Shown here one piece after another: positions 3,260-44,600 of a stretch of DNA of 45,988 nucleotides; position 1 is the stretch's first letter, and every line of letters begins with the position of its first letter. The stretch is from a virus. The notes below the pieces were generated by a model. The model made no database searches and had not been told where the DNA came from. It saw nothing but the letters and a program-made list of their open reading frames with translations. Location of the stretch: the IMG/VR virus record IMGVR_UViG_3300045988_087605, positions 1 through 45,988 of that record; one strand, written 5' to 3'. The translations under genes were made by a program, and so were the position numbers.

Positions 3260-3341
3260 GTTAAAACTGTTAATGCACGTTAAAGTATTTGCCACTTATA
3301 AATATATCCGTATATTTGCAGCGTAGAAGTTATTACTAACG
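3260..3341 (+). promoter_or_regulatory. early-type promoter/leader cassette, orphan copy (no ATG ORF behind it)
   Basis: GTTAAAAC 3260-3267, GTTAAT 3269-3274, GTTAAA 3279-3284. -33 TTTG 3288-3291; -7 TAtaTTTG 3311-3318 (19-nt spacer). Leader ATTACTAAC 3332-3340. Confidence 0.5.
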
Positions 3342-3554: not shown

Positions 3555-3644
3555 GTTAAATAAGTGTTAAATATTAAACTTGCGCTTTGATATTTAAAAT
3601 ATCTCCTTAACTTTGCAAGGTCAAAAGGAAACGAATTACTAACA
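3555..3644 (+). promoter_or_regulatory. early-type promoter/leader cassette
   Basis: GTTAAA 3555-3560 and 3566-3571. -33 TTTG 3586-3589; -7 TAacTTTG 3608-3615. Leader ATTACTAACA 3635-3644; ATG at 3660. Confidence 0.6.
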
Positions 3645-5135: not shown

Positions 5136-5972
5136 ATGAAAGAGATAAACGAAACTCAATTACAGCTATCGACTAAGGGAAAAAGACTTCCCGATATGAT
5201 AAAGCAGGCGAACGGCATACACGAACTTGTTAAGCAGAAACTTTCTGAGTATAATTCAATAGAGTATACCGATGATAATATAAAGGTAGCAAAAGCCGAT
5301 AGAGCCACTTTAAACAAGGCGAAAAAGGGACTTAACGACAGCCGTATAGAACTGGAAAAGGCTTGGATGAAACCATTCAACGAACTAAAGGATGTTGTTA
5401 ACGAAACTTGTAAGCTGATCGGTGAAGCTTCTTCACGAATAGATAGTAAGATAAAAGAAACGGAGGAAAAGGAGAAGCAAAAGAAACTGGATCAAATAAG
5501 GGAGTATTTCGAGGAACACAATGAAAACCTTATATTGTTTGATTTTGCTTTCCGTCCGGAGTGGCTTAATAAGACCAAAGCACTTTCAGTTGTGAAAATG
5601 GAGATAGACGAATTATTTAAAACGGTTGATGATGATCTTAACAGACTGAAAGAGCATTTTGCGGGAGAGGCGTTTTATATTCCGGTTATCGACAAATATA
5701 CGTCTACACTCGATTATAACAAGTCGTTCGATTATGGAAATCACCTAAAAGAAGCTGCAATACAAGCCGCAAACAGACAGTTTGAACAGAAGGCGACAGA
5801 TAACACGACTCAGCAACAAAAGCCCGAAATTAAGCCTCAAAACGAGCCAAAGACAAACGAAGAAGAAGTTTATATAAGAGGATTTAAAGTCCATGTAACG
5901 AGAAAGCAGGCTTTTGCGCTTGCTGAGTTTATGAATAGCCACAATATAAAGTTTGAAAGTATATCAATATAG
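5136..5972 (+). CDS. DUF1351-like phage protein (278 aa)
   Basis: 'TDDNIKVAKADRATLNKAKKGLNDSRIELEKAWMKPFNELKD' followed by a coiled coil resembles DUF1351. The track start at 5034 overlaps the previous gene, so ATG 5136 is preferred. Confidence 0.5.
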   Translation: MKEINETQLQLSTKGKRLPDMIKQANGIHELVKQKLSEYNSIEYTDDNIKVAKADRATLNKAKKGLNDSRIELEKAWMKPFNELKDVVNETCKLIGEASSRIDSKIKETEEKEKQKKLDQIREYFEEHNENLILFDFAFRPEWLNKTKALSVVKMEIDELFKTVDDDLNRLKEHFAGEAFYIPVIDKYTSTLDYNKSFDYGNHLKEAAIQAANRQFEQKATDNTTQQQKPEIKPQNEPKTNEEEVYIRGFKVHVTRKQAFALAEFMNSHNIKFESISI

Positions 5973-5974
5973 AC

Positions 5975-6004
5975 GGTAGCCCAATTGGGCTACCTTTTTG
6001 TTTT
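5975..6004 (+). terminator. rho-independent terminator
   Basis: ggtagccc-aatt-gggctacc followed by T5. Confidence 0.75.
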
Positions 6005-6014
6005 GTTTGCAATG

Positions 6015-6103
6015 GTTAATCTATTGTTAAAACTCAAAGTTTCGATTGAATTTTCAAATAGTGTGCTTATATTTGCAGTGTTGAAAGAAACAAAGTAGTA
6101 ACA
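6015..6103 (+). promoter_or_regulatory. early-type promoter/leader cassette
   Basis: GTTAAT 6015-6020, GTTAAAAC 6026-6033. -33-like ATTG 6045-6048; -7 TAtaTTTG 6068-6075. Leader AGTAGTAACA 6094-6103; ATG at 6120. Confidence 0.6.
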
Positions 6104-6119
6104 ATTAAAAATTAGAATT

Positions 6120-6371
6120 ATGAAACTTAAAAAATGGTATTTTAGGAACGATATTAAAAGTCCTTATAATTTCGTTGAAGCTAAAACAATTAGAGGCGCA
6201 TTGACTCAGATAAAGAAAAAACAACGTGTGTTTGCTGAGACTTTTTTGGAAACAACATTTTGTAGTATCTTCGAAGATGATATAAAACTATCAAACATGC
6301 GTTGTATATTAGCTACGTATGTCTCGCCGTACGGAGATATAAAACAAGATATATTGGAATTACGAATTTAG
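6120..6371 (+). CDS. hypothetical early protein (83 aa), paralogue of 3660..3905
   Basis: See 3660..3905. Both are the first gene behind a cassette. Confidence 0.65.
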   Translation: MKLKKWYFRNDIKSPYNFVEAKTIRGALTQIKKKQRVFAETFLETTFCSIFEDDIKLSNMRCILATYVSPYGDIKQDILELRI

Positions 6372-6384
6372 AAAACTTGTGATT

Positions 6385-6570
6385 ATGAAGGAAATTAGAT
6401 GCGTAAAATGCGGATGTGTGATTAATACAAATGCCGGATACTATGCTGCTTTTGATGGTAGCTTTTGCAGAAAGTGTTGGAGTAAACAATCAGAGAAATT
6501 TAAGAGTGAACAGTTGGTGAAAGCACTCGAAAAGAGATTCAAAGGTAATATTAACAATAATTTATTTTAA
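6385..6570 (+). CDS. small zinc-ribbon protein
   Basis: 'CVKCGC..(x19)..CRKCW'. ATG 6385 is preferred over the GTG at 6379 used by the track. Confidence 0.5.
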
Positions 6571-6571
6571 A

Positions 6572-7369
6572 ATGGAACAGTATTTAGACTTACTAAAAGA
6601 GACTTTAACCTATGGTGAAAAGAGATCAGACCGAACAGGAACGGGAACTATCAGTTTATTCGGTTTACAACGATCTTATGATTTGCGTGACGGTTTCCCG
6701 CTTGTCACAACTAAGAAGGTATTCACGAAGGGAATTATATATGAGCTTCTTTGGATGTTAAAAGGTGACACCAATATAAAATACCTAAATGAAAATGGTG
6801 TTCATATTTGGGACGATTGGTCAAAGCCTTCCGGTGATCTTGGACGTATATACGGTAAACAATGGCGTGACTGGCGTATAAATAGCAAGTTAAGAGTAGA
6901 TCAAATTGATTCAGTTATAGATATGATTAAGTTTAACCCTGAGTCAAGAAGGCTAATTGTTAGTGCTTGGAATGTTGGAGAAATACACATGATGGCACTT
7001 CCTCCGTGTCACTGCTTTTTTCAGTTCTATGTGTCTGAGTCCGGTTATTTGGATTTGAAACTGTATCAAAGAAGTGCAGACCTTTTTTTAGGAGTTCCTT
7101 TCAACATTGCGTCTTATTCTATCTTGCTGTCTATGGTAGCGCAGGTTTGCGGCTTAAAGCCTCGTAGATTCATTCACACTATCGGGGACGGACATATATA
7201 TTTGAATCACGTTGAACAGGTGAAAGAACAATTGAGTAGAGAGCCGTTCGCCCTTCCCAAATTGGAATTAAACCCGAATGTTCGTAATATATTCGATTTT
7301 AAGTATGAAGATATTAAGATAGTAAATTATAACTGCCATCCGGCTATAAAGGGAGAGGTTGCGGTATGA
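6572..7369 (+). CDS. thyA: thymidylate synthase (ThyA type)
   Basis: Colinear with E. coli ThyA: 'DRTGTGT', 'FPLVTTKK', 'YGKQWRDW', 'SAWNVGE', catalytic '[11 protein letters not shown]', '[18 protein letters not shown]', 'GDGHIY'. Confidence 0.95.
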
Positions 7370-7688: not shown

Positions 7689-7794
7689 GTTAAAACGAGT
7701 CTTTTTATATTTCATTAACAATAAAATTAAAGAATTCCTTTGCATATTTAAAGTTTATCCTTAACTTTGCGACATCAAAAAATAAGTAGTAACA
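7689..7794 (+). promoter_or_regulatory. early-type promoter/leader cassette
   Basis: GTTAAAAC 7689-7696. -33 TTTG 7739-7742; -7 TAacTTTG 7762-7769. Leader AGTAGTAACA 7785-7794; ATG at 7810. Confidence 0.55.
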
Positions 7795-24583: not shown

Positions 24584-26192
24584 TCGTAATAAGCCAGTAA
24601 TTGACTTTCTTTCTAAGGTTAAGACGTGGATAGCGAAAGATAAATATGATATTTTCCTATCTATGTTCCATTTCCCGGTTAAAACAAATGGTGTTACTTC
24701 TGAGATATTCGACAAACTGAGCCGTGTTTTCGATGGTAGGAATCCGGTTTATAACTATCAGTTTAAATCATCAGAGGATCGTGACGACTGGGAATATTAC
24801 CGGAAGGATGTTTTAAAAGAGCCTTCGGTTTGGAGTACGGACGGTTGGGATAATTTCAAGCATAGAATTAACTCTGTTTTGGTTGTTGATATGCCGGAGG
24901 TACAGGTAGGAGAAAAACCAGAGCCGTATTTTTTTTGGTTGCCTATTGCAAACGTACTTTCTTATCGCACATGTGGGAAAGACTGTAATTTGATGGCTTA
25001 TATCATGTACGTAACGGACGAAAATAAGATCGTCTATATTGATGAAGAACGTTATGTAAGATTTGATAAAACGAGGGAAAACGACTTGATTTTAGAGGTA
25101 GACAATATGCACGATTTGGGCTATTGTCCGGCTCGTTTCTTTTGGTCTGACTCTATATCATTGAGTGAACCCGACATTAAAATAAGCCCTATAACGAGCG
25201 AACTCGACTCTTTCGACTGGTATCTTTATTATTCCACTGCAAAGAAGCATTTAGATTTATACGCGTCTTATCCGATTTATTCCGGTTATGAACGTGATTG
25301 TCACTATGAGTCACACGATGGCAAAGAACGGTGCGATGATGGTTTTTTAAAGAACGAAAAAAACGAGTGGATAACAGGTGCGGACGGAAAACCGATGGCG
25401 TGCCCGATTTGCTCAAGCAAGCGGTTGAGGGGCGCAGGCTCTTATGTTGAGATACCCATCCCGGACGAAATGCACAACGTCCCCGACTTGAAAAACCCGA
25501 TCACTATGCTATCCGCTGATACCGGATCACTCGAATATAACGTAAACGAGGAAAAGAGGCTGAGAGAGGAACTTGTAAGATCGGTAACAGGTGGAGAAGG
25601 GGAATTAAACAGGTCTGAGGCTATTAACGAAAAGCAAGTTAAAGCGGGTTTTGAGTCCTTGACTACTAAACTAAACAGAATCAAACGAGGCTTCGAGGAA
25701 GCGCAAACATTCGTAGACTCTACTATCTGTTTACTCCGTTATGGTGATAGCTTTGTTTCTTGCAATATTAACTACGGGACTGAGTTCTATATCTATACAC
25801 CGGAAGATCTTTCAGAGCGTTATAAGATCATGAAGGAAACCGGAGCGTCCGAGGCGGAACTTGATGCACTGAGGCAACAGATCATCGAAACGGAGTATCG
25901 GAACGACCCTACACAGATGCAAAGGTTATTAATCCTTAACGAGATAGAGCCTTATTCACACTTAACGAGAGAAGAAGCGGTAAATCTGTATAAAGAAAAC
26001 GTTATAAGTGAGGAAGATTTGCGAGTTAAATTAAACCTTCCTACATTTGTGCGTAGATTTGAAAGGGAGAACATGAATATCATTGAGTTCGGTTCTGCAC
26101 TTGACTATAAAAAGAAAATTGAAATAATTATTAACACTTTAAAAAAGTACGCAAATGGTTTACAGAACGGATCAGTTAGATCAACTGAATGA
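24453..26192 (+). CDS. portal protein (putative)
   Basis: 579 aa. Sits downstream of TerL and upstream of the scaffold and capsid genes. Call rests on size and position only. Confidence 0.6.
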   Translation: MKMGKSLDEIREIYRHPEGISQIAKAKEHEERIAFHTRVRTSDDRNKPVIDFLSKVKTWIAKDKYDIFLSMFHFPVKTNGVTSEIFDKLSRVFDGRNPVYNYQFKSSEDRDDWEYYRKDVLKEPSVWSTDGWDNFKHRINSVLVVDMPEVQVGEKPEPYFFWLPIANVLSYRTCGKDCNLMAYIMYVTDENKIVYIDEERYVRFDKTRENDLILEVDNMHDLGYCPARFFWSDSISLSEPDIKISPITSELDSFDWYLYYSTAKKHLDLYASYPIYSGYERDCHYESHDGKERCDDGFLKNEKNEWITGADGKPMACPICSSKRLRGAGSYVEIPIPDEMHNVPDLKNPITMLSADTGSLEYNVNEEKRLREELVRSVTGGEGELNRSEAINEKQVKAGFESLTTKLNRIKRGFEEAQTFVDSTICLLRYGDSFVSCNINYGTEFYIYTPEDLSERYKIMKETGASEAELDALRQQIIETEYRNDPTQMQRLLILNEIEPYSHLTREEAVNLYKENVISEEDLRVKLNLPTFVRRFERENMNIIEFGSALDYKKKIEIIINTLKKYANGLQNGSVRSTE

Positions 26193-30669: not shown

Positions 30670-31228
30670 AGCTATAATTAGACCAAATGCGGCACTTTTC
30701 GATAAAACGATAGCCGATGTACAGGTAAGCCTAACAAAATCGCTTAAATGGCTTAATTTCGCTTTTGGGAACGTGGTTAAATTGGTAGAGAGAAACGAGA
30801 GGGGGAAATTTGTTACCCCATCAGTGTATTTTAAGGGAAATGATTATTTGCGCTTAGAGCCTGACGATAAGCGGGGTAACGTTTGCTTTTTCTACATGCA
30901 CGACTCACAAGATTATGAAGGGGGAGACTCTTTGTCTGGCTTTGGCGATCTGAGGGGGACGGTTAGCATTATCTTTTGGTTCGATACCCGTAAAATCCCG
31001 GGTGCGGAATACTACAACGTGGAGTTTGTAAAGTCCGAAATACTAAGAGCATTAACGCATGAACTTTACCTGCCATCGGGTGATATACAGGTGAGGAAGA
31101 TATTTCATGACGCCAATAATGTATACAAGGAGTTTTCTATTCAAAAGACGGATAATCAATACTACGTTTATCCCTATGCTTGTTTGCGGTTTGAGTGTGA
31201 TATTCATTGCGAAGAAGGGTGTTATTAA
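30659..31228 (+). CDS. virion morphogenesis protein, function unknown (189 aa)
   Basis: Overlaps the upstream gene and is followed by a terminator. Confidence 0.6.
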   Translation: MNDRAIIRPNAALFDKTIADVQVSLTKSLKWLNFAFGNVVKLVERNERGKFVTPSVYFKGNDYLRLEPDDKRGNVCFFYMHDSQDYEGGDSLSGFGDLRGTVSIIFWFDTRKIPGAEYYNVEFVKSEILRALTHELYLPSGDIQVRKIFHDANNVYKEFSIQKTDNQYYVYPYACLRFECDIHCEEGCY

Positions 31229-31249
31229 AGGGGGAGTTTCCCCCTTTTT
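31227..31249 (+). terminator. rho-independent terminator
   Basis: aaaggggg-agttt-cccccttt stem plus T-run. Confidence 0.7.
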
Positions 31250-31251
31250 GT

Positions 31252-31339
31252 GTTAAATATATGTTAAAACTTAAAGATTCGATTGCAATATTAAATAAAC
31301 TACTTATATTTGCAATGTCAAACAACGAAAGTAGTAACA
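31252..31339 (+). promoter_or_regulatory. early-type promoter/leader cassette located inside the late region
   Basis: GTTAAA 31252-31257, GTTAAAAC 31263-31270. ATTG 31282-31285; -7 TAtaTTTG 31305-31312. Leader AGTAGTAACA 31330-31339; ATG at 31356. Roughly 80% identical by eye to the cassette at 18780-18885. Confidence 0.6.
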
Positions 31340-31355
31340 ATTAAAAATAAAGATT

Positions 31356-31538
31356 ATGACAGCAAGTTTATTTATTCAGAGAACAGTTGAAAAATTTATT
31401 ATGATGGAATTTGTTAAGGGAAACATGGATACCAAGGAACAAGTTGATACGATGATAGAAGTTATCAAAAGAAAGTTAGACTTTTCGCATGATGAAGCAT
31501 GTGATTTTATAAGAAAAGCGATCGGAATAAACGAATAA
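31356..31538 (+). CDS. hypothetical small protein (60 aa)
   Basis: First gene behind a cassette. Confidence 0.55.
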   Translation: MTASLFIQRTVEKFIMMEFVKGNMDTKEQVDTMIEVIKRKLDFSHDEACDFIRKAIGINE

Positions 31539-31554
31539 CTTTAATTATTGACAG

Positions 31555-31572
31555 GTGGGGATAATACCCCAC
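31555..31572 (+). other. intercistronic hairpin
   Basis: gtgggg-ataata-ccccac. Confidence 0.4.
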
Positions 31573-31589
31573 TTCCTAAAATAAAAGCC

Positions 31590-32690
31590 ATGAAAGTAGA
31601 TAAGTATCTAAAGAGCCACATATATTTTGAGAGACTTAAAAGTGATATAATAACCGTGGGAAACCACACAAATTTTAAAGGTATGTTTAACGAGGAAAGA
31701 ATTGAGAATTTAGAAAAGAGAATTTCAAGAATTGAACAGATTCAAAATGCAGAATGTAATTCTGCGCAAATGGAAAGAAGGGTTCAACGTGCTTTGATTG
31801 ATTCCAACAACGAAGTAGTAAGAAGAATTTTTGATGATGTGTCCGTTAGTTCTGTATATGGTGTAGATGTATTTTCACCGAAAACCGGAGATATTCAAGT
31901 ACGTAATGCGGTGTTTAGTGGAGAGGTATTCAAACAAGCGGTGTCTAACGGTATATCCGATTATTTAAAGAAGGTAGAAGAGGATAAGACGGAAGCGCCT
32001 ACTATTGCAAGCGTGTTAGAAAAAGCACGAAGGAATGCGATGGCGATACAGGAACTTTTAAAACGAACCGAATGCTCGAACGTGAACGAAGTAATAAGCA
32101 AGTTTGAACTTGGCGTTTCTTTTAAAAAGATGTATGATGAAGAATCACGCAAAAGAAAAGAGCTTGCACAACAAAGAGAACTTCTAAATCGTGATTTAAG
32201 CAATCAAATAGCTAAACTTTCTGATAAAAACCAATCTTTGATGCAAAGTGAAAAAAGCCTTATTTGCAAACTTGCTGATAAAGAATCGGAATTAAAGAGA
32301 GTGGAAGAACTTTCAGACGGTAGATATAAGGAAGTTGCTTGGCTTCGTGGTGAACTAAAAAAGCAGGAACAGGAAGTAGAAAAACTAAAAGACGAAAACA
32401 AGCACATTAAATCGGTTAATGCGAAAAGGGTAGTAAGAACGGTTGATGCCCTTTGTCGGGAAGAGGATGCGGTAGTAGGATATTCAGATTTGAAAAAGAG
32501 ATGTGAAGAATTGGAGAGGGATAAAAAATACTTGGATATGGCAAACACTGCACTCTTGCAAGAAGATCGTAAAATTAGAGAGCATTTGAACGAAAGAATT
32601 AAGAAGCTAAAACAGAGGCTTAAAAAATCGTCTATCCGTTACAGAGACTTAAAAGAAAGCATTTCGCATAATGGTTTGAAATCAGTATAA
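31590..32690 (+). CDS. long coiled-coil protein (366 aa)
   Basis: ATG 31590 lies downstream of the hairpin (the track uses TTG 31548). Heptad-rich K/E sequence. Confidence 0.6.
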   Translation: MKVDKYLKSHIYFERLKSDIITVGNHTNFKGMFNEERIENLEKRISRIEQIQNAECNSAQMERRVQRALIDSNNEVVRRIFDDVSVSSVYGVDVFSPKTGDIQVRNAVFSGEVFKQAVSNGISDYLKKVEEDKTEAPTIASVLEKARRNAMAIQELLKRTECSNVNEVISKFELGVSFKKMYDEESRKRKELAQQRELLNRDLSNQIAKLSDKNQSLMQSEKSLICKLADKESELKRVEELSDGRYKEVAWLRGELKKQEQEVEKLKDENKHIKSVNAKRVVRTVDALCREEDAVVGYSDLKKRCEELERDKKYLDMANTALLQEDRKIREHLNERIKKLKQRLKKSSIRYRDLKESISHNGLKSV

Positions 32691-32698
32691 CAATAACA

Positions 32699-32717
32699 GC
32701 CGGGATAATATCCCGGC
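32699..32717 (+). other. intercistronic hairpin
   Basis: gccggga-taata-tcccggc. Confidence 0.4.
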
Positions 32718-32732
32718 ACAATATTAAAATAT

Positions 32733-32993
32733 ATGTTGAAAGTAGATATAAGAAATAGGATATTAAAACCAAAGGTTGGTGAGATTATAACCGTAATAGG
32801 AGATATATATACCACGGTAGCGGAAACTATACCGGACGAAAACGGGAGATGTGAGTCATGTGCTTTCAATGATGCAACAAAGGTAGGAGGTGATTGCGGT
32901 GATTTTGTGAGTTGCTCTAAACTTAACCGTAAAGATAATGTTATGTTTAAACTAATAGAAAGAAAGAGAACTAAGGAGGTTGAAAATGAATAG
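32733..32993 (+). CDS. four-Cys module protein, copy A
   Basis: 'KVGEIITV...GRCESCAFNDATKVGGDCGDFVSCSKLNRKDNVMFKLIE'. Confidence 0.6.
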   Translation: MLKVDIRNRILKPKVGEIITVIGDIYTTVAETIPDENGRCESCAFNDATKVGGDCGDFVSCSKLNRKDNVMFKLIERKRTKEVENE

Positions 32994-33237
32994 AATATCT
33001 TTGTCGGATAGAGATAGATTCGTACCGAAAGAGGGGGAAATATTTTTTGCAGAAGTTCCGGGAAAGGGAATAGACCGGAAGGTAGAGGCGGTATTATTGA
33101 AAGACAATAGCGGTTGTAAGAATTGCGCATTTTTTAAAGGAGAATTAAAATACTTGTGTATGCAAATAAACTGCCTTAACAGAGGAAGGCAATTAATTTT
33201 TAGGAGGGTTAGAAAATGGGAAGATTTAAAAGAGTAA
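32980..33237 (+). CDS. four-Cys module protein, copy B
   Basis: 'KEGEIFFA...SGCKNCAFFKGELKYLCMQINCLNRGRQLIFRRVR'. Confidence 0.6.
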   Translation: MKMNRISLSDRDRFVPKEGEIFFAEVPGKGIDRKVEAVLLKDNSGCKNCAFFKGELKYLCMQINCLNRGRQLIFRRVRKWEDLKE

Positions 33238-33434
33238 AACTATATGATACCTTCACGATAGATCACCCGATAACAGGAGAAGTTATCAGAGTTCAAGCAA
33301 TGGAAGGAAACAATGTAATATCATGTCGGGAGTGCTTATTCAGACAAAAGGAGTTTAGAAAGATATGTCCACTTATGCGATGTGTCGACATGTCTACGGG
33401 AAAATGTCAAACGTATAAACAAGTGAAGTTATGA
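33216..33434 (+). CDS. four-Cys module protein, copy C
   Basis: 'ITGEVIRV...ISCRECLFRQKEFRKICPLMRCVDMSTGKCQTYKQVK'. Confidence 0.6.
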   Translation: MGRFKRVKLYDTFTIDHPITGEVIRVQAMEGNNVISCRECLFRQKEFRKICPLMRCVDMSTGKCQTYKQVKL

Positions 33435-33886
33435 AGAAATTAGATTTATCAATGATACCGATTGACCTAAAGGTAGGCGAGGAAATGGAGGTATTAACGC
33501 CCAAAGGGGATAAAGTTACAGTAAGGTGTGTTGAGGATAAAAGAAAAGACATGTGTGAAATTTGCTTTTTCGGAGAAAACGGTTTGCACATCTGTTCATA
33601 CGTTAAATGTAGCGAGAGAGAGCGTGAAACAGGTGATAGTGTAAGCTATCAAGAAGTAAAAAGGGAGAGGCTGTATACAAAAATAGAGGCAGGAAAAGAA
33701 TATAAGGTAGGGGATATTGTTAGGCTATCCGGAAAATATGAATACGCTAAAGTGGTTGAGTCGAACAAATGTAACGGGTGTGTATTTCTGGATAGGTGGT
33801 GCAATGTAATATGCGGAGAGAGGGAAAGAAGTGACGGAAAATCAATCGTACTACTGCCGTGTAACAAGAAAGGAGAATTATTATGA
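33431..33886 (+). CDS. four-Cys module protein with two tandem modules (D1 and D2)
   Basis: 'KVGEEMEV...DMCEICFFGENGLHICSYVKCSERERETGDSVSYQEVK' and 'KVGDIVRL...NKCNGCVFLDRWCNVICGERERSDGKSIVLL'. Confidence 0.65.
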   Translation: MKKLDLSMIPIDLKVGEEMEVLTPKGDKVTVRCVEDKRKDMCEICFFGENGLHICSYVKCSERERETGDSVSYQEVKRERLYTKIEAGKEYKVGDIVRLSGKYEYAKVVESNKCNGCVFLDRWCNVICGERERSDGKSIVLLPCNKKGELL

Positions 33887-34025
33887 AAGAAGTGGATGTG
33901 CCTTCCGAAAGGGAGATTTAGAAAGCATGTGTAAAGCATATCTATGCATGAGGGAAAGAACATTAGATTGTTTAGTGTTTAAGGTAGTAAAGGAGAAATT
34001 CAAACGAAATGTTACAGAGTTTTAA
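33831..34025 (+). CDS. degenerate or truncated four-Cys module (copy E); start uncertain
   Basis: 'SGCAFRKGDLESMCKAYLCMRERTLDCLVFKVVK'. The only start is a GTG lying 56 nt inside the previous gene. Confidence 0.35.
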   Translation: MTENQSYYCRVTRKENYYERSGCAFRKGDLESMCKAYLCMRERTLDCLVFKVVKEKFKRNVTEF

Positions 34026-34057
34026 AAGTTAAAGTATTAATTTAAATGTGTTGACTT

Positions 34058-34402
34058 ATGAAAGAAGAAGTTGTTTTAATGCTCTCTGAGCTAAGATTGC
34101 AAATTGATGATACAATTAGTCGTCTTAAGAAAGAAAGCGCCTTAGAAGGCAAAGAAATTATGTCTACGTTGGAAGATTGTGGCTTGATTAAGGTATGCGA
34201 TTATTTAATCTACCCGCAAGCCTTTTTAGAGTGGTGTTTTAGTCGTGGATTTTTGGAGACGGAAGGTGAAGTATTTACTGTCGGAGGGAATCCCTGGATA
34301 GGGAATAAATACGTTTCAAAAAACGATCTAATTAACTTGGATGAAAACGGACGTGTAACCGTTCACCCTTCGTTGTTATACGTCTATTTTAAAACGCGGT
34401 AA
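34058..34402 (+). CDS. hypothetical protein (114 aa), paralogue of 34405..34785
   Basis: 'DYLIYPQAFLEWCFSRGFLETEGEVFTV' aligns with 'DFLFPHQTLDFMMWADKMGYIRHKEDNLFIV'. Confidence 0.55.
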   Translation: MKEEVVLMLSELRLQIDDTISRLKKESALEGKEIMSTLEDCGLIKVCDYLIYPQAFLEWCFSRGFLETEGEVFTVGGNPWIGNKYVSKNDLINLDENGRVTVHPSLLYVYFKTR

Positions 34403-34404
34403 GA

Positions 34405-34785
34405 ATGAATAATACAAAGGAATTTGAGGAATACTGCAAAGATGTGAGTGCCTCCGAAAAGTTAGATAAATATATTGCCGATATGGTAGAACACGATGAA
34501 AGGGAGAGACTAAAGTCGCTTTTAGATATTTGTGAGAAAAGCAAGGATAGTAGATACGATCTGCCTATCGACTGCAAAACATATCTTCCTTTGAGAGATT
34601 TTTTGTTTCCACATCAAACACTTGATTTTATGATGTGGGCTGATAAGATGGGGTATATTCGGCATAAAGAGGATAACCTTTTCATTGTTTCGTCTATGAT
34701 TAAAAGGTGGGATAGCGTTGACTCTCTTAAAGTTATGCCGGAGATTGTGGAAGCGTTTGTTTTATACAAAAAACATGTAGGTTAG
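34405..34785 (+). CDS. hypothetical protein (126 aa), paralogue of 34058..34402
   Basis: See 34058..34402. Confidence 0.55.
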   Translation: MNNTKEFEEYCKDVSASEKLDKYIADMVEHDERERLKSLLDICEKSKDSRYDLPIDCKTYLPLRDFLFPHQTLDFMMWADKMGYIRHKEDNLFIVSSMIKRWDSVDSLKVMPEIVEAFVLYKKHVG

Positions 34786-34805
34786 GAGTCTTCGGACTCC
34801 TTTTC
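34784..34805 (+). terminator. rho-independent terminator with UUCG tetraloop
   Basis: aggagtc-ttcg-gactcct followed by tttt. Confidence 0.75.
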
Positions 34806-34870
34806 TTATTTATAAACATTTCGTTTTTATCCGCCTCCTGGGCCTCTGAGACTAACGTTTTAATAATCAA

Positions 34871-34878
34871 TATCTTTG
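34871..34878 (+). promoter_or_regulatory. -7 box TAtcTTTG (a second candidate, TActTTTG, lies at 34908-34915)
   Basis: Lies upstream of ATG 34926 and restarts the tail operon after the island. Confidence 0.4.
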
Positions 34879-34925
34879 CGAAATTGCTTTTTATTCATAC
34901 TTTTGTACAAACTAATATTTGAATT

Positions 34926-35231
34926 ATGGAGATTTATAATTATTTTCTTTCTTGCGTGCTACTTGTTTCGTTTGTAGCGGCATTTTGTGTTAACTTTGCC
35001 CGAAAGACGGGTGTAATTGAACGGATGTCAGTGTATGGTGATGATTTGTTATCTAAGGTGTTCCGGTGGTATGGTGATAGATCACTGATTAACGAGCTAA
35101 CCAACTGCGATTTCTGCCTATCGTTTTGGGCGTGTGTAATTTGTTCGGTGATTGTGTCGATCGGAACGCTAAGCCCTATTTTCATCCTTACACCTATCTT
35201 TGCAACACCTATTTGTAGAATTTTAATTTAA
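34926..35231 (+). CDS. small integral membrane protein (DUF1360-like?)
   Basis: Hydrophobic helices at both ends. The 'CDFCLSFWACV' motif resembles the DUF1360 CxxCxxxW signature. Confidence 0.45.
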   Translation: MEIYNYFLSCVLLVSFVAAFCVNFARKTGVIERMSVYGDDLLSKVFRWYGDRSLINELTNCDFCLSFWACVICSVIVSIGTLSPIFILTPIFATPICRILI

Positions 35232-35518
35232 TGATTATGGAGATTAGAAATTATGTATCAATTATTCCGCCCTTCGAGATCGTGAGGGCGGTTAAGTTTA
35301 ACGGTGATGTTCACGAATTAGCGCAGTTATTGCCAAGTTTTGAGCTACTTTCCGCAATGGGTGGCGTAATGATGGCACGAATAAACGGCAACACTTTTCG
35401 GGTGTTTGATAACGACTATATCGTTCTTGGCGAAAATGTTACTTACTCAGTCGATGAAGAAACGTTTGCCATATTATACGAGCAGGCAGATAAGGAGGTG
35501 ACGAATGAACACGATTAA
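35231..35518 (+). CDS. hypothetical tail-module protein (95 aa)
   Basis: Track ORF with a 1-nt overlap to the upstream gene. Confidence 0.5.
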   Translation: MIMEIRNYVSIIPPFEIVRAVKFNGDVHELAQLLPSFELLSAMGGVMMARINGNTFRVFDNDYIVLGENVTYSVDEETFAILYEQADKEVTNEHD

Positions 35519-36257
35519 GGTAGGGAATCACACGGTAACGGTATACGAAGGCATTGATGAAATGCCTATCGTCCGTTATCAGAAGTTTAACCGTCTTATG
35601 CTGATTGAGTCGGGTGTTGGAAGCACTATCGAGGAACTAGACACGCATTTGCAACGTGCTATTGTCTATTGCAGGACACATCCGGAACATACGTATAACG
35701 AGCTAATGAATCTAAGGCAGTGTTTCAATATGGCGTCGAATGGCGTACATCCGGGAATGATGGCTTTTGCCGCCTTCGTTAAATCGGTCGATGGCGTGGA
35801 ATATCCGGTTAATGCGTCCGACTCTGATCTAAAGGCGATATTTGACAGTCTCAGCGATGCAACTATTAACGAACTTTCTGAGCCGTTTCAGAAGGTCAAA
35901 AAAAAAATAGAGGCTGAAGTATCGGTATACTTTCCAAGGATGTCGGACGATCCTCTGATTAAAGAGTATTACGATATTAAACTATCGCTGATAAAGGCAA
36001 AGTTAGACAAACTTGTGAACAACGTAGATAACAGTGAGGCGGTGAAGGAAATAGAAGATAAGTTGCTAACCTTCTTCCCGCCTCGAATATTCTACGGGAC
36101 TGATTCGGTAGAGATAAAGACGGACAAGGAGTTTCAAGAAATGTGCTTAGTTATAACGCAGAATATGCACATAAATGCACGTGAAATGTCGGTGTCTGAG
36201 TTTTACACCGCTTTCGAAATGATTAAGAGACAGTCAAAAAGGAGTAAGAACAAATAA
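35505..36257 (+). CDS. putative tail assembly chaperone (by position); contains an A10 run
   Basis: It is the gene immediately upstream of the tape-measure gene. A10 lies at 35898-35907. Confidence 0.4.
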   Translation: MNTIKVGNHTVTVYEGIDEMPIVRYQKFNRLMLIESGVGSTIEELDTHLQRAIVYCRTHPEHTYNELMNLRQCFNMASNGVHPGMMAFAAFVKSVDGVEYPVNASDSDLKAIFDSLSDATINELSEPFQKVKKKIEAEVSVYFPRMSDDPLIKEYYDIKLSLIKAKLDKLVNNVDNSEAVKEIEDKLLTFFPPRIFYGTDSVEIKTDKEFQEMCLVITQNMHINAREMSVSEFYTAFEMIKRQSKRSKNK

Positions 36258-36268
36258 ATTTAAATCAA

Positions 36269-39200
36269 ATGGCGAACGAAGTAAAGGGAATAAAGTATAG
36301 CGATCTTATACAGCCTGACAGCAGTATAAAGGACGCTATTACGCAGTTGGAAGGACTGCAAAAGATATATGACGCTATGTTAAAGCGTATCGAGGAAGGC
36401 GCAAAAGGTCTGCAAAAGCCTATTTCAGAAGGTGGAGGCGCAACGGAGGAAGGACGCAAAAAGATAGACGCCTACGAAAAGCAAGTGCGATCCTTGGCGA
36501 ACGCTGAGATACAATTGAAATTGGCACTGACAGAGACAGCGCAGGAAATCGCAGTATTGAAGAAACAGACAGCCGATCAAAACTATCTGAATAAGTTGCA
36601 GGCTAAGTTAGCCAACAGCATGGCAGGAAGCTATAACGCATTGTCTGCACAATACGAGCTAAACAAAATAAAGATGAACAATCTTTCACAGGCTTATTTG
36701 GAGAATACGGAGGCAGGAAAGAAGCTTGTTAAAGAGACTGCGGAGATTTACGCAGCGATGGATAAATACCAAAAAAGCACAGGAAAGCACACGTTAAGCG
36801 TGGGTAACTACAAACAGGCGTTCGATGGTTTAGGCTTTTCTATATCACAGGTAGCTCGTGAACTTCCATCCTTGGCGATCAGTGCAAATACCTTCTTCCT
36901 TGCTATTTCCAATAACATTCCGATGGTTATAGATGAAATACAGAAGTTGCGTGCAGCAAACGAGGCGGCATCGAAAGCAGGGGAAGCACAGGTAAGTATA
37001 ACCGGGAAGCTGGTTAAATCTCTGTTCTCGTTTAATACCGTGATGGTGTTGATATTGACCGCCTTTTCTATTTGGGGTAAGGATATAACCAACTGGATAG
37101 GTAGCCTATTCAAAGGTAAAACAACAGTAGATCAATTGAAACGGTCTACTGCCGACTTGAAAGACGCTATGTTAGAGGCTGGAAAGAGTGCCGTAAACGA
37201 GTCTGTGAGATTGAACATCCTGTATAAAGCGGCTACCGATTCCACACGCAGCCAAAACGAGCGTTTGAAAGCTGTTAAGGAGCTAAAGAAAGAGTATCCG
37301 GAGTACCTTAAAAACCTATCAGATGAAGCTATTATGACGGGAAACGCATCAAAGGAATACAAGGAACTTGCAAAACACATTCTATCGGTCGCAATGGCAC
37401 GTGCCTACGAGGAAAAGATACAAAAGAACGCAAAGGAAGTTATTGACCTCGAAGAAAAAAAGAATCAAGTATTAGAGGAAGGTCGGAAGACTTACCAAAA
37501 GCAACAAAAGGAGATCGAGGAACTTAAACGTTCGTCTAAGGGTATCGGTGTTGGTGCGGTGGCTTTAGAAGCGGCTTTGCAAGGGCAAGCGTCCGCATGG
37601 AATACTGCCAAAAAGGAGGCAAAGAGCTATGACGATCAAATAGCAGTTATCAATAAGTCAAGTGAGGAACTTGCTAAAAAGGTGGTTATCCCCGATCTTC
37701 TTGCGGGAGGTAAGGGAGACAAAAAAACAAAAAAGAAGGACTTTGATTTACAAGCTGAGTACGAAAATAGCCGTATAGCACTTATTATTGATTCCCGTTT
37801 GAAAGAGCAGGAAGAACGTAAAAAGACAACGGCAGATGAACTGAAAAAGCTAAAGGAGAGCACAACAGAGAAACAAAGAGCTACGCAGTTGTATGCTGAT
37901 ACCGTATACAATATCGAAGCAAAATTGCGTAGAGATTTGGAGAAACTGCAAAACGATTGGAAGGTAGAGGATCTGCAAATCACGCATGACCGATTGAGTG
38001 AACGCCTAAAGGCTGTTAGACGTGGCACGGCTGACGAGCTATTAATACAAGTGCAGTTACTCGAAAACGAAAGAGCGCAGGACGAATTGCGTATTAAACA
38101 GTCAACCGATAGCGAACAGGTGAAGAATGAACGTTTGCTTATCCTGCAAAGGTCGTATCAGCTTGCATCTATCCAACTGCAAAAGGATTTCACGGAAAAT
38201 CAAGACAAACGTATAATTGATCGGTCGGTGTTCCGACTTAATCAGCAGCAGCAGGCGGAGAGTGCCGCCTTTAATATCGTGCAACGTTCGGAGAAAGAAC
38301 AGAGCCGTTTCCGGTTGAAATTAGAGCGTGAAAAGTGGGAGCAAATATTAGAGTTAACAAGGCAGTACGGAGAGCAAATCACGGGATACAACGTAAAGAC
38401 GGTAGAGGATACCATTAAGGGAATAGACAATGCAATTAAGCGTGATACTTCCGGATGGGACAGAAATCAAGGCGTATTTGGCAATCTGTTTGATCTTGTT
38501 TTCGGTGACGCATTTAGCGCTAAAGATGGTAAGTCGGGCGCAGAGCGTGCGGAGCAGTTTAAAGAATCAATATTAGATGCTTCGGGGTTCGCCATAGAAA
38601 ACCTAAAGAGTGTTGCGCAGGCAAGGGTAGAGGCGGCAGAAGTGGCGGTACAGGCGGCAGAGAAAGAAGTTTCAGCCAGACAAAAGGTTTTGGACGCTGA
38701 GATACAATCGAGGGCGAACGGATACGCCAACAACGTAGCAACCGCACAAAAAGAGCTTGATTTTGCACGCAAACAACAGGAAAAAACACTGAGGGATAAG
38801 AAGAAGGCGCAGAAGCAGCAAGAACGCATAGATACGCTTATGCAGGCAAGTTCTTTGGTGACGGCAACTGCTAATCTGTGGAAAGATTTAGGCTTGGCAG
38901 CTATCCCAGCTATTGCGTTGATGTGGGGATCATTTGCTTTTGCTAAGATAAAAGCCTCGCAGCTATCTAAAGCCTCACAGGACACGGAGGAATATGGGGA
39001 CGGTACAGTAGAAATGATCGACTACGGAGGCTCACACGCATCCGGCAACGATGTAGATTTAGGCACGACTAAGGACGGTAAGCGTAGACGGGTAGAACGT
39101 GGTGAATACTTCGCAGTAGTGAACAAACGTTCATCTCAGAAGTATAAGAAACTCGTTCCGGACTTGATTAATTCGCTAAATAAAGGTACTTTTGAACAGA

Positions 39201-41621: not shown

Positions 41622-44600
41622 ATGGAAGTACATAACAACTTTAGTCCTTTGGCGTTTAGAAAGAAAGAATCTAAAGCCACATACGAAAAATGGTACGCTT
41701 TCGGGAAGAATTATGCTATCCCCGCAAGCGCAAATACGCTTATACCTTTCCAGTTTACCGATGTAAATGTAGGAGAGGTTCAGCCCGATTCTATTGAGGT
41801 TGTAGCGGTAAACCAAGAAACCGGAGAGAACATTAAAACAGGTGTGTATGTTAGTCGTGACGACATGCCCGAACATGGCAGCGTTCTGTACGTGTCACCC
41901 GGTAAGAACTTGTTTCGTGAGGCTTTGCCACAGGGTACATATCGGGCGGAGTTTTCAATCGGAACACAGTTTTATATTTCAACTCCTTTTTGTGTTATTC
42001 CCGGTATCGAAACAAGTAGCAAATATCTGTTGATTGAGTATTGGAACGATGAAAAGATCGCATATCCGGGTGGCTTTATTACAACGGGTGCGAACAATGA
42101 CTTCCGGTATCAGATGTATGTTCCTGCAACGATCTGCAAACCTAAATACGAGTTTGAAGAAGAGCTAACCAAACGTGCCGGATACAAGTTTTTGGAACTG
42201 CAAACGTCTACGAAGGTGTACGCCTTTACATTCGTTGCACCGGAGTTTATTTGTGACGCTATGCGACTGATTCGCCTATCTGACTATATCCGAATTTCGC
42301 ACGATGGCGAATATTACAACGCTCTCAACTTCGAGTTTGATGTTGATTGGCAGGAACAATTATATTTGGCTGCTGTTGACTGCCAGTTTGAGACGGACTC
42401 AATCATACAAAAACTCCCTTCTTTCAATAGACGAGATAAAGCGTCTTTTTATAATGCCCTATTAGCGAACATTGATACACCTATAATGTTCTCTCCCGAT
42501 ACCGTAGGGCTGTATTACAAAGAGTATCGGGAAACAGAGCCAGTAGTCAAGGGTAAATTGATCCGGGAGCTATCGCCTATTGACTTGATAGATGAAAATA
42601 CAACTATTGCCGTTGATTTGGGTACAGGTGAGGCGAGAAAGTTTAACTTATACCGAATGTTGCAGGACTATATTTCTAAGGCGCATGAAGACGCAACGGA
42701 CTTTTTGTTACATCTTCGTGGAGGTGCAACATTTGGAGATGATATTTCGGGTAGCGCTGCGCACATAAATTCGGCAGGCGCAGCAAGATTTAACGATGTT
42801 GATGCAGACGCAGTTTCTGCCGATGCCGTTGACGTTGGTTCTTTGTTGTCGGTGGGTAATACTGCATTTACGGTTAACAAGTCGGGAAAGACGGACACAG
42901 GCGAGCTTACAGCAAGGGGAAAAGCGTATCTCACAGAGGACGTTTATACAGGTGGCGGAACTGGAACGATAACGAAAGACGGACAATTAAAATACCTTTC
43001 TGCAATTATCCAACAGTTCCTATCATCCCCTACGTTCGTTTCCGGTTTTCTTGGAGAGGGCTTTAAAATATGGGTCGAGAATGGCAATTGGCATATAGAA
43101 TGTGACAATTTGACAGTAAGACAGACTATGAATATATTTGAGCTACTTATCCAAAAGATAAGGAGCGTTAACGGGGCTATTGTTGTGTCCCAATCAAACG
43201 GCAAGGTTACAGCCGTAGAGGACACCGGAACGCAGTACAAAATCACGTTCGGAGAGGAATTTCCCACCTTTCAAGAAGGTGACTTGATACGCTGTCAGTC
43301 ATGGAGTAAGAATGCGCTTAAATTTTATTGGGTAGAGGTTAAGACAGCAGCAGCAGACGGTTATGTTCTTTGCGACAAGTCTGAGTTTAACAACGTTGTT
43401 CCGGCTGTTGGCGATGAAGTCGTGCAGATGGGTAACACGAAGAATGCGGAACGGCAAGCATTGATTTATATCACAGCACAAGAAAGCGGCAAACCGTACA
43501 TTGAGATTCTGAACGGTGTCAAGACAAAGAGTCTGACCGGGACAGACCGCACCCGTCTTGGCGATTTGTCTAACATTGTAGACCCAGATTTCACAGGTGA
43601 GGCGGCTGTTAAAGGAACTGGATTCTACTCTACTAACGCCTTTTTAAAGGGTATCTTTGTATTGCGCAATGGTAAGCGTGTGGAGGACGAAATTAAGATT
43701 GCAAAGGACGCAGCCGATAAGGCAGCACAAGACGCAGCTAATGCACAGGGAACTGCAAATGCGGCAAAAGAAAGGCTTGACAAATGGGCTGACGATGGTT
43801 TTATATCTCCTACTGAAAAGCCCGCTTTGATTGATGAAGGAAAGCGTATACAGGCAGAGTTTTTGCAGATAAAAAATAACGCTGACAAATACGGTGTATC
43901 CGTTACTGAATATACCAAGGCTTATGAAGATTATTTAAATGAACTTAGATACCATTCCGCCCAACAGCCGGAAGATATTGCGGTGCGTCCGGAACTTGCA
44001 AAGACGCAAGTGATATACTACGATCGGAGAAACGGAGCGTTGAACGCTATTGCGAACGCTGCAAAGAGCTACGTAGATGAAGCTGACAAGAAGCTAAAGG
44101 AGTATTTAGATACGGAGATCACAGCGATACCCGGTAAGATTGAACTTGCTGTACGGAGTCTGAAAACGGCAAATTATAACTTGCTGTTAGATAGTAACCA
44201 CACGCTTAGCGCAAACCCGTATGAGCTTGGATCATACAAATATGATGTTCATTTAGTGAAAGGTAAATCTTATACGTTGACTGTTTGTTACAAGTGTGCA
44301 GATTCGGACGATGTTGTAGCGTATAATAACCCTTATTTCGGTTATTTGGCTATATTACCGAAAAGCGCAGAGGAAACAATTGTTTCAACTAAAATAACGC
44401 CTTCGTATGATGATGCAGCGTATTTCTATTTCTATAAAACTCCACAGAAAGAAACAACCCAAACGTATGTAAAATGGGCTGTTATTACTGAGGGTGATAT
44501 TGGTGTAGCCGCATGGATACCGTCACGCACGGAGGTAAGAACGGGTATTAGAAACTTGTTTCCAATATCGCGGATGCAGACAGCAACTAATAAACAGTTT

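Follow-up and report, generated by a model that had tools for sequence, protein, structure and literature searches.

An accessory array of four-cysteine module genes in a Bacteroides fragilis-type siphophage

Between positions 32733 and 34025 of a 45,988-nt stretch of viral DNA (IMG/VR record IMGVR_UViG_3300045988_087605, positions 1 to 45,988; hereafter the window), five consecutive + strand open reading frames (ORFs) overlap one another and repeat a small module with four cysteines. Do these ORFs form a real gene family, and if so, what might such a family do for the phage? The initial annotation had described five genes carrying six copies of a module that it did not recognise. All five ORFs and all six core strings quoted there are present and the six modules are related, but the gene count has to be revised: there are four genes, which overlap on the + strand (32733-33886) and together contain one module of about 65-80 aa in five intact copies, and the fifth ORF holds a remnant. 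The comparisons described below show that the array is a genuine, dispensable and recombination-shuffled multigene family, and we are highly confident of this structural and evolutionary description.

A module with four invariant cysteines

Because BLASTP comparisons between the modules were not significant (E 0.26-7.8), we used profile methods. Ortholog groups for each module type were gathered from a search of 5.8 billion proteins, and comparison of the resulting profiles with hhalign gave E-values of 3.9e-7 (T1-T4a), 4.7e-5 (T1-T5), 3.5e-5 (T2-T5), 1.2e-4 (T2-T3) and 6e-27 (T3-T5), with T4b giving the weakest value (1.2e-3). A hidden Markov model (HMM) built from 42 distant homologues, with B. 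fragilis-phage sequences excluded, also matched all six modules of the window, which scored 41.7, 48.0, 27.0, 56.2, 34.5 and 19.5 bits in array order; the maximum among 300 shuffles per module was at most 15.4 bits. The four cysteines follow the pattern C-x2-C-x-F ... C-x3-5-C and are invariant in alignments of 32, 44 and 60 sequences, in which mean column identity falls to 21% and the phenylalanine after the first cysteine pair is at least 90% conserved. The consensus of the distant members reads kiGE.f.l.g..v.v......C.gC.F....C....C...ER.D...VIFKEVK. Both parts of the original proposal, that all of the ORFs carry one homologous four-cysteine module and that its cysteines are conserved in homologues, are thus borne out. 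Searched exhaustively with HMMER, 1.84 billion representative proteins yielded 97 clusters at E<=1e-3.

Module gene 1 (32733..32993, + strand, 86 aa, type T1) contains the core CESCAFNDATKVGGDCGDFVSC. Gene 2 (32986..33237, + strand, 83 aa, type T2) most likely starts at ATG 32986, which is preceded by AAGGAGG, rather than at TTG 32980 of the mechanical ORF. Gene 3 (33216..33434, + strand, 72 aa, type T3) shares an ATGA overlap with gene 4 (33431..33886, + strand, 151 aa), which encodes two modules, 4a (T4a, 33431-33664) and 4b (T4b, 33665-33883); this two-module protein is kept in 11 database clusters. The translations contain no obvious membrane segment or signal peptide, and no further module copies were found elsewhere in the window.

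The sixth module had been taken for a decayed copy. It is indeed a module remnant that still matches the distant-only HMM, but the ORF that holds it is not to be read as a decayed gene that has a separate start. Window positions 33780-33894 align to positions 5156-5270 of a related locus (L114), that is, to the end of 4b followed by ATGAAAGAAGTG, the first four codons of T6 (MKEVIDFK...), a module type missing from the window, and positions 33894-34060 align with 97% identity to L114 5825-5991, the C-terminal half of T5. Because the junction, mapped to the base, joins the start of T6 to half of T5, 554 bp of the L114 arrangement (T6, T7 and the N-terminal half of T5) have been deleted and the frame is broken. 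What remains is a stump of the T6 gene (33883..33921, + strand), in which ATG AAA GAA GTG (MKEV) leads out of frame into T5 sequence with a stop after 12 codons, and the C-terminal half of the T5 module (33894..34025, + strand), which is read within the mechanical ORF 33831-34025. Judged from this alignment, that ORF is most likely a pseudogene remnant of the deletion, and its GTG 'start', which lies inside ORF4, is probably fortuitous. Intact T6 (MKEVIDFKIGDEY...) occurs in loci L104-L107, L109, L112-L114, L117, L121, L122, L124, L126 and L127, and intact 80-aa T5 proteins are present in databases (P0048, P0049).

Pfam, PHROGs and NCBIfam scans of the window proteins returned nothing above threshold, the best Pfam score being 14.1 bits for ORF3 against a gathering threshold of 27 bits. 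When 44 family members were scanned singly against Pfam, no family matched more than two of them, and all matches were far below the cutoffs. Three of these candidates, zf-like (PF04071), DUF3795 (PF12675) and ARF7EP_C (PF14949), each matched one or two of the 44 members (E 0.001-0.05); they resemble the module in having short Cys-rich segments that align locally, but the scores are sub-threshold and no consistent relationship with the module family emerges. A PDB sequence-profile search gave the arenavirus RING protein Z (E 0.0097), which we rejected as a marginal compositional match. Because phrog_33085 (PHROGs v4, function label unknown) matches three of the 44 distant members (best E 3.6e-5), it probably captures a sub-branch of the same family; the window proteins did not match it. 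Apart from this one PHROG, no counterpart of the family turned up in Pfam, NCBIfam, PDB sequences or a Foldseek comparison with the PDB, in agreement with its having gone unrecognised in the initial annotation.

AlphaFold2 (AF2) models were obtained for gene 1 (predicted local distance difference test, pLDDT, 81; predicted template modelling score, pTM, 0.72) and, from the 60-sequence alignment, for module 4a (pLDDT 88.5, pTM 0.77; all five models 86-88). The two are mutually consistent and predict a compact strand / Cys-loop / strand domain, in which two to three N-terminal strands and one C-terminal strand flank about 30 residues of turns and short helices that carry the four cysteines. Searching the PDB with both models, Foldseek found no match at E<=0.001 (best template modelling score about 0.35-0.36), although it is less sensitive for very small domains; in BFVD, it retrieved uncharacterised phage proteins of the module family only.

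The cysteine spacing had suggested a zinc-ribbon or treble-clef-like site, a suggestion that found no structural match. The module shares with zinc ribbons, zinc knuckles and treble clefs a CxxC knuckle after a beta-strand and four invariant cysteines within about 20 residues. However, a zinc ribbon has two CxxC (or CxxH) knuckles at beta-hairpin turns, whereas in the module only the first pair is CxxC and the second is C-x3-5-C; DSSP assignments of the AF2 models show short helical turns between the ligands instead of two beta-hairpins, and neither Foldseek nor the PDB sequence-profile search retrieved a zinc ribbon or treble clef. The cysteine pattern itself suggests that the four residues most likely chelate a metal ion (Zn2+). 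Literature searches found no description of the module family. Because it could be assigned to no zinc ribbon, treble clef or curated family searched, and no paper on it was found, we rate it as a new protein family. On these searches and models it is undescribed, its predicted fold lacks a detectable solved relative, and this small fold is possibly new as well.

Plasticity and selection among related phages

Window positions 31500-36300 matched 18 Bacteroides fragilis siphophages in GenBank at 89-94% identity, including B40-8, B124-14, Barc2635, vB_BfrS_23, UZM3 and VA7, and judging by these matches the window is a B40-8/B124-14-like B. fragilis siphophage. Because the matches covered only 47-96% of it, the stretch is variable inside the phage group. 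With the 250-aa protein encoded downstream of the array as an anchor, we fetched 27 IMG/VR loci (L102-L128), in all of which the anchor is 96-99% identical, and added two GenBank loci (L001, L002).

Array size differs widely in these 29 related genomes, from nothing but a 29-aa remnant in B40-8 and one copy in L111 up to eight modules in L120, and the two terminators that bound the surroundings of the array lie 2263 to 4840 bp apart. In all, at least ten module types occur, five of which are not in the window (T6, T7, T8, a divergent T2 and a divergent T4a). Truncated copies also occur; vB_BfrS_23 and L110, for instance, have a T2 stump of 37 aa. In UZM3, a chimera joins 4b to T5 exactly at the common CNGC motif, and further hybrid module proteins are found in databases (P0014, P0015, P0023, P0035, P0038, P0086). 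DNA repeats that could drive recombination of the array were searched for, and only short ones at chance level were found. Because B40-8 is a plaque-forming isolate (host B. fragilis HSP40) and carries the remnant only, there is at least one host on which such a phage can grow lytically without the array. The local amplification postulated at the outset is thus evident from the tandem paralogues, which number up to eight modules in relatives. Together with the zero to eight modules among near-identical genomes and the recombinant junctions, these paralogues give the array the properties of an accessory multigene family, or genomic 'accordion'.

To describe selection, we calculated the ratio of non-synonymous to synonymous substitution rates (dN/dS) by the pooled pairwise Nei-Gojobori method for five module types, with 7-21 distinct alleles per type from the 29 genomes and the window. 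The ratio was 0.22-0.35 in the N-terminal strands, 0.06-0.38 in the Cys-loop region and 0.33-0.60 in the C-terminal part. Because it lies between 0.06 and 0.6 in every partition, the modules are real proteins under purifying selection. In the Cys-loop region of T1, T2 and T4a, dN and dS are both raised, and this joint rise points to old alleles exchanged by recombination rather than recent positive selection by point mutation. The 'fast divergence' of the initial annotation therefore applies to copy number and module composition, which change fast, and not to the module sequences.

These results also bear on whether the ORFs might be chance frames or decayed pseudogenes with a coincidental cysteine pattern. 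The sixth copy is truly a pseudogene remnant and several relatives carry truncated copies, as this explanation would have it. For genes 1-4 it is refuted by dN/dS values well below 1, by the 97 representative clusters, by cysteines that stay invariant across alignments of 21% identity and by confident AF2 folds, and we give it practically no credence overall.

The extreme presence/absence polymorphism and mosaicism among co-circulating relatives, and the dispensability of the array in B40-8, would suit an array that serves conflict between phages, by excluding or out-competing co-infecting relatives, or one that is selfish, recombination-prone cargo from which the phage gains little. This is improbable in our judgement: every module type is under purifying selection, the family is retained in hundreds of distantly related phage contigs, and family scans found no nuclease, toxin or mobility gene with the array.

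The island and the setting of distant homologues

According to PHROG annotation, the window encodes a large terminase (22073), a portal (24453), a scaffold-like protein (26553), a virion structural protein (27522) and a tail protein (30217), followed beyond the array by the 250-aa anchor as a virion structural protein (35505) and the tape-measure protein (36269). A 189-aa protein (30659) directly before the island corresponds, by gene numbering, to the protein termed tail terminator in the related phage Bf12P1. The array is thus located in the late morphogenesis region, with the tail-terminator gene on one side and the tape-measure cluster on the other. The content of what had been called a non-structural island was therefore described correctly, but its neighbourhood was not.

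Several annotations in this region are uneven. Neither a major tail protein nor a pair of tail assembly chaperones could be identified among the window ORFs. The 437-aa protein encoded at 28907-30220 matches phrog_8189 (function label unknown), and its annotations in related records are empty or conflicting; the 250-aa protein (35505-36257) is a 'virion structural protein' in the B40-8 record and a 'tail assembly chaperone' in the UZM3 record.

The island is delimited by signals on both sides. An intrinsic-terminator-like hairpin, AAAGGGGGAGTTTCCCCCTTT followed by a T-run (31227..31247, + strand), directly follows the tail-terminator gene as the upstream boundary, and its core GGGGGAGTTTCCCCC is present in 19 of 30 genomes compared, at variable distance to the array. 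The downstream boundary is a terminator-like hairpin, AGGAGTCTTCGGACTCCT with a T-run (34784..34801, + strand), found as an exact pattern in 13 of the 30 genomes. In total, a 6-kb stretch that includes the island holds 12 terminator-like sites compared with 3.3 expected. Upstream of the first island gene lies a near-consensus Bacteroides-type candidate promoter, aTTG-N19-TATATTTG (31283..31312, + strand), which was not returned by the exact pattern because of one mismatch to TTTG in the -33 box and whose function is presumed. A consensus Bacteroides promoter, TTTG-N19-TActTTTG (34875..34905, + strand), heads the downstream tail/tape-measure cluster. Directly behind this promoter, a 101-aa ORF (34926-35231) with a hydrophobic, membrane-like translation and no family match is the first of the cluster.

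In the whole window, the pattern TTTG-N17-23-TAnnTTTG has 12 matches compared with 2.8 expected, and none of 100 shuffles reached 12. Seven of the sites are on the + strand (3288-3318, 3586-3615, 7739-7769, 26018-26049, 34875-34905, 42336-42368 and 43109-43140) and five on the - strand; since every large ORF is encoded on the + strand, the seven sites there could mark out the transcription units of the phage. Rfam and tRNA scans of the window returned nothing. GC content is 0.33-0.38 inside the island compared with 0.40-0.47 in the flanks. Given the terminators at 31227 and 34784, the promoters and the lower GC content, the array looks like part of an accessory unit of its own (31250-34800) that lies within the late region. 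Within window positions 31000-35000, the island also has a GC skew of up to 0.48, far stronger than that of the surrounding structural genes.

Besides the modules, the island encodes four proteins on the + strand. The first ORF (31356..31538, 60 aa) has no family match, and the vB_BfrS_23 and UZM3 records list an equally long ORF, whose translation is nearly identical in vB_BfrS_23. It is followed by a 380-aa helical, coiled-coil-like protein (31548..32690) that belongs to no PHROG, Pfam or NCBIfam family and is itself hypervariable: among relatives, its gene shows 56-89% identity, is truncated or is missing. In vB_BfrS_23, the coiled-coil gene is duplicated (L001 1244-2488 and 2928-3602); the 224-aa paralogue and the further modules behind it look like a second unit. 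Four metagenomic proteins (P0102, P0106, P0119, P0125) fuse the coiled-coil N-terminus in frame to a Cys module. We rejected these fusions as a Rosetta-stone functional link: most look like in-frame deletion products, and the link is further weakened by the coiled-coil gene being missing from several genomes that keep the array.

Downstream of the array are a 114-aa ORF (34058..34402), which matches phrog_34779 (function label unknown), and a 126-aa ORF (34405..34785) with no family match. The two share a loose F(L/M).W....G(F/Y) motif, and their comparison as possible paralogues was not significant (E 0.18). A natural chimera (P0084) joins a T3 module to a protein like those of 34058 and 34405, which shows that recombination in the island extends beyond the Cys modules.

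Fifteen nucleotides upstream of the first module gene, a perfect hairpin, GCCGGGATAATATCCCGGC (32699..32717, + strand), has no T-run behind it. It is kept in 17 related loci (L001, L002 and 15 of L102-L126), just before the first module where checked, and is retained even where the coiled-coil gene is missing (L102, L114, L120). In seven of the 17 loci, the + strand reads the reverse complement, with ATT instead of AAT in the central loop and an unchanged stem, which means that the loop differs or is flipped between genomes. The hairpin might act in RNA processing or attenuation, or as a site of recombination.

The position of the array between tail-terminator and tape-measure genes would be explained if the modules were virion- or assembly-associated accessories, such as tail or head decoration proteins or assembly cofactors, and weak sub-threshold PHROG matches to scaffold and baseplate entries (E 0.14-0.31) point in the same direction. 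These matches are not significant, however, and the island is set apart by terminators, a promoter-like site and a differing GC content. Copy number varies from zero to eight among phages whose flanking protein is 96-99% identical, homologues elsewhere reside in replication or accessory regions, and the modules were not detected in B124-14 virions, although that analysis was insensitive (PMC3338817). We give this explanation only a small chance of being right. The initial annotation had likewise remarked that such a pattern is unusual for virion parts, and the modules indeed include no recognisable virion component, since all structural PHROG matches are non-significant (E>=0.14).

Homologues of the module are found in hundreds of gut Bacteroidales phage and prophage contigs. 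One peptide pattern alone yielded 278 confirmed IMG/VR loci and nine loci in bacterial genomes, mostly of Segatella copri and Prevotella. In loci fetched through the IMG/VR and bacterial pattern scans and contig look-ups, stretches of about 12 kb carry one copy (41 loci) or two (50 loci), seldom three. Several homologues, for example P0135, P0136, P0197, P0128 and P0176, hold two or three modules in a single chain. Two others (P0133 and P0167, 416-427 aa; loci L007-L009, gene at 6001-7284 of L007) are multidomain proteins whose two modules are flanked on one side by two SH3-like repeats at the N-terminus, with sub-threshold DUF5776 and SH3_15 matches, and on the other by a conserved C-terminal domain without a Pfam match (…ERLRQL..KGYD..HDDKH..G.LA.AAA…). 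This multidomain setting might hint at partners of the module.

Two loci with PHROG-annotated neighbours (L010 and L019) place the module gene amid many small ORFs just downstream of replication genes; the upstream genes encode exonuclease VIII, a helicase, SSB, NinB, a Holliday-junction resolvase, a replication initiator, a DNA methyltransferase and a pyrophosphatase. An unrelated 85-kb metagenomic phage contig (L004) carries three tandem module copies (5983-6786 and neighbours) with Phage_pRha/ANT, N6_N4 methyltransferase, Acb2_Tad1_hairpin and DUF551 genes within about 5 kb, and Phage_TreK and Resolvase in the surrounding small-gene region. The short metagenomic contigs that encode P0183 and P0150 gave no useful context. 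Taken together, the L010, L019 and L004 neighbourhoods indicate, on gene content, that the usual home of the family is a non-structural accessory region. In Segatella/Prevotella-type loci, these small ORFs downstream of replication and recombination genes resemble the small accessory genes of the lambda nin region, a type that temperate phages carry between their replication and late genes. The B. fragilis phages differ from this type, as the family has moved into an island of the morphogenesis region and reaches up to eight copies.

Possible roles of the module proteins

What might a dispensable, shuffled set of small conserved proteins do? The module is a small conserved domain under purifying selection, and the array is dispensable, is rapidly gained, lost and recombined, appears to form a separate unit and has homologues in non-structural surroundings elsewhere. 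From this we deduce that the module is a cytoplasmic binding domain held together by Zn(Cys4); its affinity for metal and for proteins, its place in the cytoplasm and its role against the host all belong to the inferred part of the account. A lytic B. fragilis siphophage would then carry the array as a dispensable multigene family within an autonomous island of accessory genes. Each module would be a small cytoplasmic domain in which the N-terminal strands ('KVGE..v.v') pack against the C-terminal strand ('V.FKEVK'), with the loop between them pinned by the four invariant cysteines, most likely through chelation of one Zn2+. After infection, the proteins may bind or inhibit host proteins stoichiometrically. 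Different paralogues may recognise different targets, and the set as a whole would be a repertoire adapted to the infected strain that serves counter-defence or host takeover, the kind of role at which the initial annotation had pointed. This repertoire would be remodelled as paralogues, or the genomes of co-infecting relatives, recombine with one another, illegitimately or homologously: copies are deleted or truncated, segments are duplicated, and chimeras form where a motif such as CNGC is shared. As a whole, this mechanism of metal-stabilised binders of host factors is a serious possibility that falls somewhat short of being probable.

Several points weigh against such binders. No homology-based or experimental link connects the family to any defence system or host protein; in particular, Pfam, NCBIfam, PDB and BFVD gave no match to a characterised inhibitor of a known anti-defence family, PADLOC (defence systems) not being among the resources searched. 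Metal binding is deduced solely from the cysteine pattern. Positive selection was not found in the Cys-loop region (dN/dS 0.06-0.38), and because this loop shows no non-synonymous excess, the classical signature of an arms race is missing for point mutations. The array is also located in the late morphogenesis region, and in the only transcriptomic study of a close relative, a single-cell study of Bf12P1, the early module comprises genes 16-20, which by numbering lie elsewhere in the genome (PMC13139388). Because the virion proteomics of B124-14 detected only three proteins (PMC3338817), the modules may still be present in virions.

A different role would follow if the modules were small zinc-finger regulators of phage gene expression or replication that bind nucleic acids, acting in transcription or translation or attaching to RNA or to DNA ends. 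Many domains that bind nucleic acids combine a Cys4 knuckle with a beta-hairpin, modules 2 and 3 have a basic isoelectric point (pI, 9.4-9.5), and distant homologues adjoin replication and recombination genes. However, pI spans 4.2-9.5 across the family and is below 6 in 27 of 60 members, a required regulator should not be absent from B40-8 or single-copy in L111, and no structural match to a DNA- or RNA-binding zinc domain was found. Such regulators therefore appear unlikely to us. The wide pI range fits diverse protein partners better than one nucleic-acid ligand, in keeping with the proposed host-factor binders.

A more far-reaching version of the host-factor proposal, which we regard as speculative and on the unlikely side, would make the module a metal-binding fold not seen before, employed by gut Bacteroidales phages as a general-purpose inhibitor scaffold, with the B. 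fragilis array as a combinatorial repertoire of inhibitors of host factors or defence systems that sets strain-level host range. Phages of the B40-8/B124-14 type serve as markers of human faecal pollution and are under evaluation for B. fragilis therapy. These phages are reported to have a narrow, strain-specific host range, for which capsule type is a partial explanation (PMC13139388). Because the array is the main difference between otherwise near-identical genomes, it is a concrete candidate for what determines infectivity at the level of strains, and one that is easy to delete.

Viral multigene families and 'genomic accordions' include the amplification of poxvirus K3L, MGF360/505 of African swine fever virus (ASFV) and clustered phage anti-defence genes. 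The array resembles these in its tandem, small accessory paralogues, in a copy number that differs between very close relatives, in its recombination chimeras and deletions, and in its dispensability for basic growth. It differs in that the phage paralogues are old and under purifying selection instead of being recent identical amplicons, and in that the module domain is unrelated to these families; for the phage array, a link to defence would come from contextual hints, such as the Acb2_Tad1_hairpin gene near the modules of L004. We therefore rate its behaviour as that of a hypervariable accessory gene array, a kind already known, and the protein family itself as new.

A domain that occurs in hundreds of gut Bacteroidales phage contigs without a relative in sequence or fold constitutes a new family that merits structure determination and a screen for its targets. 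If its targets are defence systems, the modules would represent a new inhibitor class from a phage group with almost none known, and if the array does act as a host-range repertoire, it would be a phage counterpart of the poxvirus and ASFV multigene families.

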